Below are positions 47,624 to 55,983 of a stretch of DNA of 64,000 bases, piece by piece. The stretch's first letter is position 1; the number at the start of each line of letters is the position of its first letter. Under the pieces are notes generated by a model that did no database searches, had not been told where the DNA came from, and saw nothing but the letters and a program-made list of their open reading frames with translations. A program made the position numbers and the translations under genes. The stretch is from contig CM000153.2 in NCBI GenBank assembly GCA_000004695.1, positions 4,704,001 to 4,768,000 of the forward strand, in the 5' to 3' direction. Source of the DNA: Dictyostelium discoideum. Its lineage: Eukaryota.

Positions 47624-47960
47624 TTAATTATCATCTGGCATTATATTATTTAAAAATAAATTTATATTGCGATCTTTCTCTTCTTTTGTAAACCATCTTT
47701 TTTCAGTTTCAACTTTTAATTTACTAACAACAGGTTGTTTTCTTTTTTTAGTTATATTTCCATTTGATAAAGATGTTGGAATTGGTAAAGTAGTAATTTT
47801 AGTTCGATATGATATTTTTTTTTTAATTGGGGGTGGTGTTGGATTTTTAATAAAATCTTCATCTAAATAAATTTGACTATCGTATGTATAAACTTCATCA
47901 TCATCATCATCATCATCATAATTACAATCATCATCTTCTTCATCACTATTATTATTATTA

Positions 47961-48016
<56 letters not shown>

Positions 48017-48367
48017 TTCATTATTTTCATTATTCTTATTATTATGTATTCTTTTTCGTTTTCTTATTTTTTCAGATTCAGTTTGTAATTCAACTAGATG
48101 CTTAAATTCCCTTAATTCAATTTTATTTTTTATTACTTTTTCATAATTATCTGCTTTTGATTTAAAAATAATAAGATCTATATTCTTTAAACAAGGTCCA
48201 TATTGAAGTAATAACTTATAAAATGAAAATATTAACCAATCTGGTATAATATCACCTCCATGTTCTAAATGAGCATCATAAAGTATCTTTAAATAATATT
48301 GAGTTTTTGAATAAACTTTTTCTGCAAAATAAAATTTTCTCTCTTCTTCATCTTCATCATAATATAA

Positions 48368-48436
<69 letters not shown>

Positions 48437-49690
48437 AATATCATCATCATTATTATTATTTAATAATGGATGATAAAATGGATATCTTGGATCATTTACT
48501 GAAGGTTTTAAAGATTGAATTGAGTTTATCATTTTTCTTAAATATTCTTTGTTTAAAATATTTGTGTTTAAAATATGTTTTAAATTTTCAATGAGAATTA
48601 AAGGATTATCTAAAAAAAGTTCTAAATGTTTTGAAAGAATATAATCTACATGATTTGGAGTATAAGTAATGACTAAATTTTTAATATCTTTTGGTAATTC
48701 TATACAGTAGTAACTTGATAAATCTTTATGTTTCATATAGTTGACAATTAAATCAGCAGTTTCAATAGTATCAGAATTTATTGATAAATTCTTTTTTCTT
48801 TTTATTGATATATGATTTAAATGAAATCTTAATAACTTATTTGCTTTCTTCTTTTCATTTGTAAATGTAATTTTAACAATATCATTCAACTCTGATCTCC
48901 TCAACCAAAATAAAACTTCTGCTGGTTTTCTATATTTTCTTTTAATTTTATTATTATTGTTATTATTATTATTATTATTATTACGATCTGAAGGTTTATA
49001 ATATAAATTTTGAATTTCATCATGAATATTGAATTCTTGAATTTTATCAATTTTATTTTTATTACCAATTGAACTTTCTTTGATTGTTTTATATGATAGT
49101 TTTGGATATATTTGATATAATTCACTATTTATTTTCATTGAATCCCAAAGTTTTTCACTATTATTATAGTTATCTAAATCATCTTCATCTTCATCTTCAT
49201 TATTATTATTATTATTATTATCATCTGAAAATAAATGTTGAATATCATCTTCAATCATATTATCAAATTCACAAGTATCATAAACTTTATGAATGTATTC
49301 ATTGAAATCTCCATTATACATTTTCTCTTTTTCGTTATAATCTATTGTACATTGTAATGTACCAACAAATAATTTTAAACCAATCCTATTTGAGAGTTCT
49401 GCAAGTTTATCTAAATTTTTTGAAAGTGATTCATGTCCATTTTTTAATTTAAAAAAACTTGCTATTATTTTCTTTCTACTATTATTATTATCATCTTGAG
49501 CATTATGATTTTCGTTGTGGTCATTATTTTGATTATTTAATTTTGATGAAAATAATGAGTTAAAAGATTGTATTAAATCATCAAAATCATCTTGTTGGTA
49601 TTCTTTATCAAAACCATCATCATCTTGATTAAGTAATTTAACCAAATTACAAATTTGATTTATAATTTTTTTAAATTCTTTATTTACCAT
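47624..49690 (-). CDS. Hypothetical 688-aa protein with poly-Asn tracts. No confident family assignment.
   Basis: ATG at 49690, MVNKEFKKIINQICNLVKLLNQ... It is a single continuous ORF. Two ordinary-composition regions (RKPAEVLFWLRRSELNDIVKITF... and FYFAEKVYSKTQYYLKILYDAHLEHGGDIIPDWLIFSFYKLLLQYGP) suggest folded domains. Confidence 0.55.
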
Positions 49691-50200: not shown

Positions 50201-51472
50201 TTAAAAAGCATCTTCAAGTCTAAAAGCTTCTTCTGAACCCAATGATTTTCTACCAAAAAATTCCTCACCGCTATCTGATGATAAATATGTATTTTGTTTA
50301 TTTTTAAAATTATAAGTTCCATCAGCATTTAAAATATAAGTAAATATACATTCATCTTGAGCACTACCACCATAAAATCCATAATATTTATTTGTAAAAA
50401 AACGAGGATCTTTTTTTAAACATATAGATTTACCATAGAAATCCCGAATATTAAGTGTACCATCTCCTCTATCAATAAATCTTAGTCTTTGTTCTGTTCC
50501 TCTTGTATTATGTAAAAATTTTAATTCTTCTTTTTCTTTTGAAGTAGCCATTTTAAGCCTTTCTTTTGAAATAATATATTTTGGAGAATCATAAAATGGT
50601 GGTGGAGTGGGAGCTGGAGTTTGAGTTGGAGCTGAGGTTGGGGTTGGTGTTTCTGTTGGTGTTGGTGTTTCTGTTGGTGTTTCTGTTGGTGTTTCTGTTG
50701 GTGTTGGTGTTTCAGTAGGTGTTGGTGTTTCTGTTGGGGTTTCTGTTGGGGTTTCTGTTGGGGTTTCTGTTGGGGTTTCTGTTGGAGTTTCCGTTGGTGT
50801 TGGCGTTGTTGTTTCAGTTGGTGTTTCAGTTGGGGTTTCAGTCGGTGTTGGTGTTGGTGTTTCAGTTGGTGTTTCAGTTGGTGTTTCAGTTGGTGTTTCA
50901 GTTGGAGTTGGCGTTTCAGTTGGAGTTGGCGTTTCAGTTGGAGTTGGCGTTTCAGTTGGAGTTGGTGTTTCTGTTTCAGTTGGAGTTGGTGTTGGTGATT
51001 CTTCAGGAGTTGACGAAGGGTTTTGTGAAGATTCAGAAGATCCCAATGATTGCGAAGATTCAGAAGATGTCAATGATTGAGAATTTTCAGAAGATTCCAA
51101 TGGTTGCAAAGATTCAGAAAATTCAGATATTGAAGAACTTGATGTTTGATTTAATTCTGGATTTTTTATTGATAAATCGGGTCCATTTAAAATTGAGTGT
51201 GAAAATAAATTATCACTTTGACTTGTTGAATTGTAATGAAAAATTAACCGATTTACAACCAATGATGCCATAAATAGTAAACTGAAAATAATAAATACAT
51301 GAATTATTTTAAATTTGGAATTATAGAAATTGAGAAAATAAATTAATGTATAAGGCCTTGAAGGTTTTTTAATTGATTTTTTTGGAAATTGAGATATTTT
51401 ATCATCTTGGCTAATTATTATATTATTTCCAAAGTCAATATTTATGGATATACTATTTAAATCATTGTTAAA

Positions 51473-51552
<80 letters not shown>

Positions 51553-51574
51553 CTTTTATTTCCAAATTTTTCAT
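50201..51574 (-). CDS. Type-II membrane protein with an N-terminal poly-Asn region, a TM segment, a Ser-rich region, an (E)TPTPT-repeat stalk and a C-terminal ~130-aa beta-trefoil/fascin-like domain. It is a paralogue of the neighbouring receptor-like kinase.
   Basis: ATG at 51574. The TM is [19 protein letters not shown]. The PT stalk is encoded by an 18-bp-period repeat on the plus strand at about 50600-51000. The C-terminal domain is ...[31 protein letters not shown]...[51 protein letters not shown]. Confidence 0.6.
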
Positions 51575-52005
51575 TACTTAAATTTTAAAAATTGAATTAA
51601 ATCAAAAACACATATCTCTTAAATTTAAAAATAAAAAAAAAAAATTTACCAAGGATCTTTCGTTTTTTACTTTTTTTATTTTTTTATTTTTTATATTTTT
51701 TTTATTTTTTTTTTCAAAAAAAAGTGAGTAAATTTAAACGTCAAAAAACTTAAAATTTATATGGAAGTTTTTTTTCAAAAACTAAGCGGTACTGGTAATG
51801 ATTTAAAAAAAAAGACATAAAAAAAATACGAATCACAAAAAAAAAAAAAAAAAAATTACAACAGTGTTTAATATAAAATAACAAAAATAATTATATTTTT
51901 TTTTTTTAAAAAATAAGATTTAATTATTTTATTAATTAATTTGTTTATATTTTTGTTTGTTTAAATTTTGAGTTAAAAAAAAAATAATGTTGTTGTGGTT
52001 TTGAG

Positions 52006-52043
<38 letters not shown>

Positions 52044-52047
52044 AATC

Positions 52048-54163
52048 TTAGTTTGGACCCAAAGAGTGGCTAAAATAAATAAAAAATTGTGATTGTGATC
52101 CTAATCCACCAGGTTTAGTAGAGATAAATCTTGTAGTTTCATCTGATTGTATATATTGATCATTTGGACTTCTAAATGAGTAAAGATTTGCTTGTTTATC
52201 TATATTAAATTGTGTTATTAGGTTGAAAGTACAATCTCTTCCATCTTTATTAGCATTTAACCTTCCTTTTAATTTTTCTGAAAAATGATAATGTTCACCA
52301 GACAAACAAATATACATTCCACCCTTTTCTCTAATTGAAAAAGTTTGTTCTGCATTACCATCATATTCTAAAACCATTGATTGATCTCTTCCTTTTTTAT
52401 CAATAAATTCCAAATCTTGACTATTTAAAACTGTTAAGCATTGATCTATCTTTTGAGAGCAAATAAAAACTGGTGTATTAAAAAATGGATTTATAGTTGG
52501 TTTTGGTGTTTCGGTAACCGGTGGTTCAGTAATAGGTGGATCAGTTACTGGTGGATCAGTTATTGGTGGATCAGTTATTGGTGGATCAGTTACTGGTGGA
52601 TCTGTAGTTGATGAGTCTGTTGGTTGTAAATCATTTGAATTTGAGGAATAATTTATTTCTGAGGATTGTGATTCAGATGATGATGATGATTCAGATGATG
52701 ATGATTCAGATGATGATGATTCAGATGATGATTCAGATGATGACGATGATTCATATGATGATTGTGAACCTTCACTATATTGATTATAATCTGAAGATTG
52801 AGTTGGTGAAGGTTTTTTTATTGGATTTGATTCTGGTGTTATTGACAAAAATATATTATCTCTTTGAATGATTGAAAATTTAGTTTGTACATGTCGATTT
52901 AAATTTACCAATATTGTCATTAAAAATAATAAAATTAAAAAAAGATAAATTATTTTAAATTTTGAATTTAAATGACTTAATTTTGAAATTCCTGTATATT
53001 TTTCATGTAAAGTGATTGTTTTAATTGGATATTGGTTTTCATATGTACTTTGAATTAAATATAAATTTTCAAACCTAATTTCATTAATACTACAAGTACT
53101 ATTACTTCCAATACTTTCAGTATTGTGTATTTCAATGTATGAATCTCTTTCATTCTCTTTTAAAAAATCGAAATATTCTTTATTGTCATTATAAAATTGT
53201 TCATTTTCGTCATTGAAGAATGGATGTTTAATTAATTGATGTGATTTTATTCTTTTTGAAGGTTCGGTTTGAAAACAAAGATTTAAAATCTCTGTAAATA
53301 GTGAATTCACTGGGAAAACCGGTATATTATTGGGTCTTTGTAAACAAAGTTGATTTAAACCCCATTTCATTTCAACAATAATACAACCTAAACTCCATAT
53401 ATCTAAACTTGAATTACTACCTTTATTATTTAATAATATTTCTGGTGCCATATATAATGTGGTTCCAACTGATGATATAGTTTGTAATTTTACAGTTTTA
53501 TTTATAATATTTTCATTAATTGCTTTTGATAATCCAAAATCAATTAATTTTAAATTAATTTTATTATTTTGATTTTGATTTTGATTTTGATTTTGAAACA
53601 TAATATTCTCTGGTTTTAAATCTCTATGCATTATACCTTTATCATTTAAATAAACTAATGCTTTTAATAATTCTTTTATAATTTCTTTGATTTCAATATC
53701 TGAGAATTTTTTATTTTCTATTATCGATTTCATTGATTCACCTTCAATGAATTCCATAATAATATATGCATATGTTTTTGAATTATTAAATTCTAAAGAA
53801 TAGTATTTTACAAATTTTGGATCATTTAATTTTTTTAAATAATCAACTTCTTTCATTGTCTTTTTTTTTTTTATTAAAAAAATTAATTTACCATTTTTAT
53901 TAAAAGTGTTTAGAAAATAAAATTAAAATGAATGAAAATAAAAATAAAATAAAACTTACAAATTTACAATATTGAATAACTTTTATTGCACATACAAAAT
54001 TTGGATCTAATTTTTTATGTGCTTTATAAACTTGACCAAATGAACCTTTTGAAAGTTGCCTTTCTATAACCCAATTCGATTTTATATAATACAAAGGATC
54101 TTCTGCCATATTGTAGTTATTATGTTTTTTATTTTTAACCCAATCATTATATTTGTCGGTCAT
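52048..54163 (-). CDS. Receptor-like Ser/Thr protein kinase with an N-terminal cytoplasmic kinase domain, a TM segment, a Ser-rich region, a (TDPP[IV])n stalk and a C-terminal beta-trefoil-like domain. Two exons: 54163..~53960 and 53859..52048.
   Basis: Exon 1 runs from ATG 54163: MTDKYNDW...IERQLSKGSFGQVYKAHKKLDPNFVCAIKVIQYCKF, carrying the Gly loop and VAIK lysine. It ends on a GTAAGT donor. The acceptor is a(10)g at 53860. Exon 2 is TMKEVDYLKKLNDPKFVKYY...IMHRDLKPENIMF...KLIDFGLSK...TLYMAPE..., then the TM IIYLFLILLFLMTILVNL, then ...ICLSGEHYHF...DCTFNLITQFNIDKQANLYSFRSPNDQYIQSDE. Confidence 0.75.
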
Positions 54164-54840: not shown

Positions 54841-55279
54841 ATGCATAAATTAATTATTTATTGTACTCCAGAACACTCTGAAAATTTAAAAAAAGAATTA
54901 TTTGAAAGATTCATTGGTAAAACTCATACTTATGAACATGTTGTTATTCAAAGTAAAGTTACTCAATACTTTAAGTATGGAATAATATTTTATATTCAAT
55001 TAAATAATTTTTCAATTTAATTAATTAATTAACAAAAAAAATTAATAATAATACTAACGAAAATAATAAAAATAATAATTATAAATATAATATTAAAAAA
55101 GATTATCAGTTTTAAAAGATCAGAGTATAGAACTTGATAAACTAGAATTTTATGTTTCTGATGAAAGTAATCGTATTTTTAATGCTTTGGAATATTTGAA
55201 GGAAAATTTACCAAATGAACATTGTTCATTTGAATCTTATCATTTAGGAAATAATGGTTATATAGGTTTTAATAAATAA
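54841..55279 (+). CDS. Small two-exon gene for a ~103-aa protein. Exons 54841..54974 and 55102..55279.
   Basis: Exon 1 is MHKLIIYCTPEHSENLKKELFERFIGKTHTYEHVVIQSKVTQYF, ending in phase 2 on a GTATGG donor at 54975. The acceptor is aaaaaag at 55101. Exon 2 is KLSVLKDQSIELDKLEFYVSDESNRIFNALEYLKENLPNEHCSFESYHLGNNGYIGFNK to a stop. It is not in the track because each exon is under 60 codons. Confidence 0.45.
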
Positions 55280-55467: not shown

Positions 55468-55983
55468 TTAAAGTGTTATAACAGATAATAATAAAGAAAG
55501 AATTAAAGCGAAAGGAATGACAATTGTTGAACTTGTTCCAGTGGTTGTAAAGGCAGCAGTGGTGGAAGCAGTGGTGACAGCAGCAGTGGTGGCAGCAGTG
55601 GTGACAGCAGCAGTGGTGGCAGCAGTGGTGACAGCAGCAGTTGTGGCACCTGCATCTGGAGCACAATCAATTGAAAAAACTCCAACTGTAACTGGAGTAC
55701 CACAAGTTAATGTTTGTTGACCGGCTGAATTTTTACATTGATCTGTTGCTTGGTACCCATTTATATCGTATTTATTAGTTTCACCAGATACTGCGGCAAT
55801 ATTTATATTACCTTGACCACAAACATCAATACACTTGGTTCCAACATCAGTTTGTGGAACTGAAATACTGCATGGATTTTTTGGATCTGCCGATGTGATT
55901 TTGAAACCAGAATATGTAGTTTCAGAATTTGTTAATGCAAAAATTGTAAAAACAAAGATTATTAATGCTGGAATGAATTTCAT
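55468..55983 (-). CDS. Small GPI-anchored, Cys-rich cell-surface protein of the ponticulin-like type.
   Basis: ATG at 55983. The signal peptide is MKFIPALIIFVFTIFALTNS. A ~90-aa domain carries 8 Cys. A Thr/Ala-rich stalk (TTAAVTTAATTAAV...) follows, then a C-terminal hydrophobic GPI-attachment signal TIVIPFALILSLLLSVITL. Size and architecture fit ponticulin-family proteins as I recall them. Confidence 0.5.
   Translation of the reverse strand: MKFIPALIIFVFTIFALTNSETTYSGFKITSADPKNPCSISVPQTDVGTKCIDVCGQGNINIAAVSGETNKYDINGYQATDQCKNSAGQQTLTCGTPVTVGVFSIDCAPDAGATTAAVTTAATTAAVTTAATTAAVTTASTTAAFTTTGTSSTIVIPFALILSLLLSVITL

Follow-up and report, generated by a model that had tools for sequence, protein, structure and literature searches.

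The 64,000-nucleotide stretch of Dictyostelium discoideum DNA analysed here (positions 4,704,001 to 4,768,000 of CM000153.2, assembly GCA_000004695.1; hereafter the window) is AT-rich, with a GC content of 0.1-0.25 outside repeats. It carries two adjacent genes on the minus strand, a protein kinase gene, DDB0229378, and, downstream of it, a kinase-less paralogue, whose products share a module made of one transmembrane (TM) helix, a Ser-rich segment, a Pro/Thr repeat stalk and a C-terminal domain (C-domain). The pair had been singled out in an earlier note made from the letters of the sequence, and both the list of open reading frames (ORFs) and the sequence itself place the two genes where that note had put them (Table 1). 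Neither the window nor the related locus of Dictyostelium cf. discoideum contains a third copy of the module.

Table 1. Features of the kinase gene and its kinase-less paralogue in window coordinates (aa, amino acids; nt, nucleotides; KD19, Kyte-Doolittle mean over 19 residues; repeat arrays from Tandem Repeats Finder; exons from the ORF list and the sequence).
Feature	Position	Strand	Residues	Description
Kinase gene DDB0229378	52048..54163	-	671 aa	Two exons; ATG 54163; stop codon 52050-52048
Kinase gene, exon 1	54163-53960	-		
Kinase gene, intron	53860..53959	-		100 nt, A/T-rich, GTAAGT...AG, phase 0
Kinase gene, exon 2	53859-52048	-		
Protein kinase domain	53215..54067 (intron included)	-	33-283	Pfam PF00069
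Kinase, predicted cytosolic juxtamembrane segment	52960..53097	-	323-368	Homologous to paralogue; YTGI and NSKFK
Kinase, TM helix	52897..52959	-	~369-389	FKIIYLFLILLFLMTILVNLN; KD19 maximum 2.49 (residues 371-389)
Kinase, stalk	52520..52763	-		Ser-rich array 52669-52763; TDPP[IV] 15-nt unit x5.5 at 52520-52602
Kinase, C-domain	52051..52497	-	523-671	4 Cys; all-beta model; aligns to paralogue C-domain
Kinase-less paralogue	50201..51574	-	457 aa	One ORF, single exon
Paralogue, predicted cytosolic juxtamembrane segment	51314..51454	-	41-87	YTLI and NSKFK; preceded by polyAsn tract 51473-51550
Paralogue, TM helix	51251..51313	-	~88-108	KD19 maximum 2.41
Paralogue, stalk	50637..51127	-		Ser-rich array 51023-51127; ETPT 12-nt unit x~21 at 50637-50997
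Paralogue, C-domain	50204..50608	-	323-457	2 Cys, both conserved with kinase copy; all-beta model

The kinase gene is read in frame up to ...TGT AAA TTT, where its intron opens with GTAAGT at 53959, to be closed by the AG that ends at 53860. The intron lies within the kinase domain at subdomains II/III, with the beta3 Lys (CAIK) on one side and the alphaC Glu on the other. The splice of 53960 to 53859, first proposed from the letters of the DNA, recurs both in the model curated for D. discoideum (DDB0229378; PMC1420674, Table S2) and in the annotated D. cf. discoideum orthologue. The Table S2 entry equals the spliced product over the first ~400 aa compared, including the junction ...YCKF/TMKEV... 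and the TM helix, which identifies the DNA as that of AX4 or of a strain nearly identical to it. In D. cf. discoideum the intron is 89 nt long, its position is equivalent and splicing it out reproduces the annotated protein exactly. The earlier note had made the fusion of kinase and TM helix hinge on this splice. That dependence is moot, because the intron is inside the kinase domain and everything that follows, from kinase residues 69-283 through the linker, TM helix and stalk to the C-domain, is encoded in one uninterrupted ORF of 602 codons.

A complete kinase domain had been expected upstream of the TM helix and it is there. The match to Pfam Pkinase (PF00069) has an E-value of 3.6e-46 and, with 158.1 bits, lies above the cut-off of 31.7, and it runs from position 3 to position 263 of a hidden Markov model of 263 positions. 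All the motifs are in place, namely GSFGQV (residue 40), CAIK (58), where VAIK had been reported, the alphaC Glu in MKEVD (70), HRDLKPEN (146), DFG (175) and MAPE (205), and the catalytic motifs are also kept in the D. cf. discoideum orthologue. Judged by these motifs, the domain looks like a complete and catalytically intact Ser/Thr kinase. The gene has been catalogued since 2006, unnamed and unstudied. The Dictyostelium kinome assigns it to STE / Dicty3 / Dicty3-Unique, and its row in Table S2 reads 'kd, a' with CAIK/HRDLKPEN/DFG (Goldberg et al., 2006; PMC1420674). A search of the PDB with the kinase returned MST1/2 (STE20) over the full length with an E-value of ~3e-24, and CDPK and CDK2 scored about equally. 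The domain is otherwise an orphan: beyond its one orthologue, the best matches among 5.8 billion proteins are generic CAMK, RSK and STE20 kinases at 26-32% identity. Literature searches for DDB0229378, for Dicty3 and for a Dictyostelium beta-trefoil combined with a kinase gave nothing past the 2006 kinome paper, and no description of this architecture was found by them.

The part of the kinase protein that lies C-terminal to the kinase domain has its counterpart in the paralogue. Pairwise comparison of the two C-domains (~135-150 aa) gave, as anticipated, a clear alignment, with 27% identity over 139 residues (BLASTP E 1e-7) and a Smith-Waterman score of 118 against 30.4 +/- 5.5 for shuffled sequences (z 15.9; 0/2000). 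When the two paralogues are aligned with their D. cf. discoideum orthologues, 35-38 columns are invariant, including a Cys pair (ICL...C.F). Residues 323-405 of the kinase and 41-124 of the paralogue are 38% identical over 86 aa (BLASTP E 1e-8; z 11.6 from shuffles). This stretch comprises the juxtamembrane segment, the sequence NSKFKII and the TM helix, and it starts ~45 residues before the helix. The part that precedes the helix gives, taken alone, a z of 4.5 (3/2000 shuffles). The common order of TM helix, Ser-rich segment, stalk and C-domain described from the letters is therefore borne out by one hydrophobic segment and a set of tandem arrays in each protein, but the shared module had been made to begin too late, since the homology extends ~45 aa upstream of the helix.

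The paralogue corresponds to the kinase gene deprived of residues 1-320, in whose place there are MKNLEIKV, a tract of 26 Asn encoded by (AAT)26 at 51473-51550 (Tandem Repeats Finder) and a short linker. No remnant of a kinase was detected by tblastn upstream of or within the paralogue, and the paralogue did not match any Pfam family. These comparisons support the idea, already put forward for this pair, that the two genes are tandem same-strand paralogues that arose by a local duplication. The duplication is an old one, with 27-38% identity left in the module, and an outgroup would be required to tell kinase gain from kinase loss. A Tyr motif of the YxxPhi type is common to the two juxtamembrane segments, YTGI at residues 356-359 of the kinase (53026-53037) and YTLI in the paralogue (51355-51366). 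It precedes the TM helix by ~12-15 residues, lies on the side predicted to be cytosolic and could be an adaptor-binding signal for endocytic or lysosomal sorting.

After the TM helix, Ser, Thr and Pro together make up a fraction of 0.35-0.52 of the C-terminal part of these proteins, and the GC content rises up to 0.46-0.48 in the stalk of the paralogue. Ser/Thr/Pro repeats are the composition typical of O-glycosylated spacers in Dictyostelium surface proteins, and the Pro/Thr tandem-repeat stalks of both proteins are probably O-glycosylated. The plus strand opposite the stalks contains ORFs of 45-184 aa at 50581-51273 and 52441-52871 (e.g. LVFLLGF..., WISYWW...). They mirror the repeats of the stalks on the minus strand and are not genes.

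Relatives of the module were sought with an exhaustive HMMER search, in which a profile of the two C-domains was run against 1.84 billion cluster representatives. One real relative was recovered, KAM9998573.1 of D. cf. discoideum, a protein of 682 aa that is orthologous to the kinase, is 94% identical to it over the N-terminal 418 residues and shares the exon junction. In that genome the annotated gene that directly follows the kinase is the orthologue of the paralogue (493 aa), and the order of genes at the locus (L001) is the same as in the window: the gene for a small secreted protein with Thr/Ala repeats, a further small gene, the kinase, the paralogue and a polyAsn-rich neighbour. No relatives of the C-domain were found beyond the D. 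discoideum complex in other eukaryotes, in bacterial and archaeal genomes or in JGI metagenomes. Word-indexed protein searches, with the C-domain and with an alignment of four sequences, gave no match and missed even the 91%-identical orthologue, which reveals a blind spot of the method and not an absence. Because distant dictyostelid orthologues could escape detection at such rates of protein evolution, the apparent absence of the C-domain outside the D. discoideum complex is not proven. Recent horizontal transfer of the domain from bacteria was considered and is unsupported, as no relatives appeared in the scans of bacterial and archaeal genomes and of JGI metagenomes.

The selective regime was estimated by the Nei-Gojobori method from two genomes only, the window and D. 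cf. discoideum, with an overall synonymous divergence (dS) of 0.10-0.20. The ratio of non-synonymous to synonymous divergence (dN/dS) is 0.29 in the kinase domain, 0.12 and 0.125 in the TM helices of the kinase and the paralogue, 0.30 in the kinase C-domain and 0.17-0.6 in the stalks. The kinase domain, the TM helices and the kinase C-domain are thus under purifying selection (dN/dS 0.1-0.3). The C-domain of the paralogue gives ~1.35 (50204-50608 compared with L001 13835-14224), a value that comes from small counts (18.5 non-synonymous and 3.5 synonymous changes), and the N-terminal tail of the same protein gives ~1.5. The proportion of non-synonymous to synonymous changes in the paralogue C-domain exceeds that in the rest of its gene (Fisher p 0.004), where repeats inflate the synonymous count, and no significant difference separates it from the kinase C-domain (p 0.11). 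The ratio of ~1.35 points to relaxed or diversifying selection, with counts too small to decide between the two. In non-coding DNA, the intron is 74% identical between the two genomes, and intron and intergenic sequence together are 74-77% identical with many indels. The stalks and the Asn/Gln tracts vary in repeat number without a change of frame, which is reflected in the lengths of the proteins (671 vs 682 aa for the kinase and 457 vs 493 aa for the paralogue). Stalk length is evolutionarily labile. As regards the second genome itself (assembly GCA_054859205.1), a dS of 0.1-0.2 and ~25% non-coding divergence from the window are far beyond what is expected within a species, so that D. cf. 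discoideum looks like a distinct sibling species.

Hydropathy provides the basis for predicting how the two proteins are inserted in the membrane. Each has a single strongly hydrophobic segment, with a Kyte-Doolittle 19-residue mean of 2.4-2.5, and by the same measure an N-terminal hydrophobic signal is absent from both (in the kinase, the maximum over the first 30 windows is -0.29). Since this segment is internal and about 280-350 residues follow it, it would work as a signal-anchor and not as a tail-anchor. The net charge flanking the helix is +3 on the N side vs +2 on the C side in the kinase and +2 vs 0 in the paralogue, which also has a far more basic region further upstream. An orientation with the N-terminus inside and the C-terminus outside is favoured because the N-terminal 365 residues comprise a folded, ATP-dependent kinase and lack a signal peptide, and because of the charge on the N flank, the Ser/Thr/Pro stalk and the conserved Cys pair. 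Both proteins are accordingly predicted to be single-pass type II proteins, as the earlier note had suggested for the kinase, with a cytosolic N-terminus and a C-terminus that faces either the exterior of the cell or the lumen of an organelle. DDB0229378 does not have the layout of a type I receptor, because its kinase is N-terminal and no hydrophobic segment precedes it, and its one TM helix sits between the kinase and the putatively non-cytosolic C-terminal domain. On balance, we favour the view that these are two real, expressed-type genes, derived from an old tandem duplication, and that in one of them a type II module joined to a kinase yields the layout of a receptor-like kinase.

What such a receptor might recognise depends on the nature of the C-domain, for which a beta-trefoil-like fold had been proposed. 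AlphaFold2 was run on both C-domains with a three-sequence alignment, and it returned all-beta models of ~12 strands arranged as 4+4+3/4 and devoid of core helices (pLDDT 41.4 and 40.9). With the paralogue model as query, each of the top 8 PDB matches of Foldseek is a beta-trefoil (FGF1 seven times, the CCL2 lectin once), with probabilities of 0.54-0.99, E-values of 0.04-0.6 and a TM-score of ~0.4, values obtained with a low-confidence query. In sequence searches, the Pfam family Fascin matched the kinase C-domain, one of the four sequences, at E 0.05 and 14.1 bits, under its cut-off of 23.1, and RicinB_lectin matched none of the four. The best PDB sequence match of the paralogue C-domain is 7ZOH (E 0.04), and the search with the kinase C-domain alone gave no match in the PDB. 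The structure 7ZOH is that of CpCBM92B, a bacterial 'fascin-like' beta-trefoil carbohydrate-binding module (PMC11039641), to which the profile of four sequences aligns in trefoil register over two subdomains. When the sub-repeats of the domain were compared with one another by hhalign, beta and gamma matched with an E-value of 0.0018, alpha and beta with 0.16 and alpha and gamma with 0.23. A bacterial ricin-type lectin was the sole non-orthologous match with a sensible alignment among the 1.84 billion representatives, and hhalign against its ricin domains gave a probability of 3%. A second weak match in that search was spurious, consisting of five copies of one 25-aa match.

The C-domain resembles the fascin-like/CBM92 and ricin-B (CBM13) trefoils in its length of ~140 aa, its all-beta content and, in a low-confidence model, its three sub-repeats of ~45 aa and four strands each. 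The pattern of its sub-repeats, h-x-h-R-x(4-6)-Y-h-x-S ... F-x-h, is in register with those of CpCBM92B and Pfam Fascin, and its Cys pair lies inside one sub-repeat as it does in R-type lectins. It differs from them in that it scores under all the curated thresholds. From these models and alignments, the C-domain is probably a beta-trefoil, divergent and of a fascin-like or ricin-like type. The proposed fold therefore stands as far as all-beta models and weak but convergent trefoil matches can carry it, whereas the identity of the domain as a trefoil or a lectin is not established at a pLDDT of ~41. That it binds carbohydrate is a guess.

On the reading favoured here, the exoplasmic C-domain would bind a glycan or another multivalent ligand, and the resulting clustering would bring the cytosolic kinase domains together and allow their trans-autophosphorylation. 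The kinase-less neighbour might then act as a co-receptor or a decoy by way of its conserved TM/juxtamembrane segment and its related ectodomain. A more specific model makes DDB0229378 a eukaryotic type II lectin-receptor kinase, with a glycan-binding trefoil exposed at the cell surface on a mucin-like stalk, a cytosolic STE-like kinase and the paralogue as its co-receptor or decoy, and is to be regarded as rather unlikely in its entirety. A number of results count against the favoured reading. Both C-domain models are of low confidence, and in structure searches the model of the kinase copy matches generic beta-barrels only. The PDB profile matches with E-values of 0.04-0.1, that to CBM92 included, and the Fascin match are at the level of noise, because a plainly spurious match to SMC3 scores 0.05 in the search with the four-sequence profile. 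The E-value of the ricin-type lectin is inflated, as it sums over three identical 30-aa repeats. The sugar-binding motifs QxW of ricin-B and Trp-Glu (WExF) of CBM92 (PMC11039641) are not conserved in the C-domains: the alignments have E-C-I-F, E-E-A-F, D-C-T-F and S-Q-F-F at the equivalent positions, and neither C-domain contains a Trp. The charge bias at the TM helix of the kinase is small, and the C-domain of the paralogue may not be functional and may instead evolve under relaxed constraint.

An alternative that we judge just as doubtful as the lectin receptor is that DDB0229378 is a membrane-anchored kinase and not a receptor. The TM helix would tether the STE-like kinase to the cytosolic face of an organelle such as the endoplasmic reticulum, the Golgi, the endolysosome/phagosome or the contractile vacuole, and the luminal part would serve for sorting, quality control or stability. 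The retention of YTGI/YTLI in both juxtamembrane segments would fit a sorting into endocytic compartments that depends on adaptors, and the C-domain carries no recognised ligand-binding signature. Yet the kinase C-domain is held by a purifying selection equal to that on the kinase domain itself (0.30 vs 0.29). Besides, the glycoproteins exposed on the surface of Dictyostelium, among them PsA and the spore-coat proteins, usually carry as their spacer a long repeat stalk rich in Ser, Thr and Pro.

The C-domain might instead be an orphan all-beta domain for protein-protein adhesion or recognition and not a carbohydrate-binding trefoil, in which case the two genes would encode a polymorphic, receptor/ligand-like pair involved in cell-cell recognition. 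The restriction of the domain to the D. discoideum complex in all the databases searched, the fast evolution of the paralogue C-domain, also in relation to the rest of its gene, and the unequal stalk lengths of the two genomes would fit such a role. We nevertheless hold this explanation to be improbable, because the weak database matches that do exist all fall in beta-trefoil families and because the dN/dS estimate for the paralogue C-domain, which comes from two genomes and small counts, does not differ significantly from that for the kinase C-domain. It is more improbable still that the paralogue is a decaying partial duplicate devoid of function of its own, since, in spite of the high dN/dS of its C-domain and N-terminal tail and its lack of a Pfam family, its ORF of 457/493 codons is intact in two genomes at a dS of 0.1-0.2, all its changes in repeat length are in frame, its TM helix is conserved (dN/dS 0.125) and an identity between paralogues of merely 27-38% implies that the frame has been open for a long time.

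The lectin-receptor model and, more broadly, the receptor-like layout can be set against systems that are better known. Bacterial Hanks-type receptor kinases such as PknB, PrkC and StkP have an N-terminal cytosolic Ser/Thr kinase, one TM helix and a C-terminal extracellular sensor, and they are activated by ligand-driven dimerisation. The order of parts in DDB0229378 is the same, its predicted topology is also the same, and by analogy the ligand-driven dimerisation of a cytosolic kinase is likely to be the logic common to both. In contrast with the bacterial proteins, the kinase of DDB0229378 is eukaryotic and STE-like (Dicty3 family), the C-terminal part has no match to PASTA or any other Pfam family, a mucin-like repeat stalk is present and the ectodomain is unrelated in sequence to the bacterial proteins scanned.

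Within Dictyostelium itself, receptor kinases are few, and those described are type I kinases of the TKL group, seven-transmembrane (7TM) fusions or IreA (PMC1420674). The kinome survey counted 17 kinases with a strongly predicted TM segment, comprising nine type I TKL receptor kinases, two 7TM kinases, IreA and five histidine kinases (Goldberg et al., 2006; PMC1420674), and DDB0229378 is not named among them in the text of that paper. The TKL receptor kinases (GDT; DRK rk1-3; PMC1420674) resemble DDB0229378 in that they belong to the same organism, cross the membrane once and have lineage-specific extracellular domains. They are, however, type I proteins of the TKL group, with a signal peptide, an N-terminal ectodomain and a C-terminal kinase, whereas DDB0229378 lacks a signal peptide, is oriented the other way round and carries a kinase of the STE group.

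A further analogy is offered by plants. Their lectin receptor kinases are type I proteins of the RLK/Pelle family with lectin domains of the legume, G or C type, and they have kinase-less receptor-like partners. What they would share with the locus described here is a possible carbohydrate-binding ectodomain on a Ser/Thr kinase, together with a gene nearby for a related membrane protein that has no kinase. They differ in their type I topology, their RLK/Pelle kinase and their other lectin domains, and no homology between them and DDB0229378 was detected.

As predicted from its sequence, the architecture of DDB0229378 is unusual for a eukaryote, that of a receptor-like kinase in reversed orientation with a lineage-specific and probably trefoil ectodomain, which makes it a putative sensor. 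If this is correct, a reverse-oriented STE-group kinase with a possible lectin ectodomain would be a new input route to Dictyostelium signalling and a rare eukaryotic counterpart of the PknB-type sensors of bacteria. Should the more specific model of a type II lectin-receptor kinase hold, a social amoeba would have independently invented both the PknB layout and the plant logic of receptor kinase and receptor-like protein, possibly for sensing its bacterial prey or its own extracellular matrix. If, on the contrary, the ectodomain is a mere luminal anchor, the result amounts to a minor annotation note on a catalogued kinase. The adjacent kinase-less copy provides a natural test of the origin of receptor/decoy pairs by partial gene duplication. 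Because the kinase gene is non-redundant and present as a single locus, in an organism amenable to genetics, the idea can be put directly to the test.

The genes that flank the pair have counterparts in D. cf. discoideum as well. Directly downstream of the paralogue, the minus-strand ORF at 47624-49690 encodes 688 aa with polyAsn and acidic tracts and without a Pfam family, and its orthologue, with much longer Asn tracts, reaches 764 aa. On the other side of the kinase gene, the minus-strand ORF at 55468-55983 encodes a protein of 171 aa that has a signal-like segment at its N-terminus, contains several Cys and a (TTAA[VA])n repeat and ends in a hydrophobic C-terminus resembling a glycosylphosphatidylinositol (GPI) signal. 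It has no Pfam match, and D. cf. discoideum keeps it at the equivalent place, where its repeat is longer. We take it to resemble the ponticulin-like proteins of Dictyostelium. Between this gene and the kinase lies a small plus-strand ORF at 54841-55020 (MHKLIIYCTPEHSENLKK...), likewise without a Pfam match, whose counterpart in D. cf. discoideum (L001 8869-9287) is annotated as a spliced gene of 103 aa.

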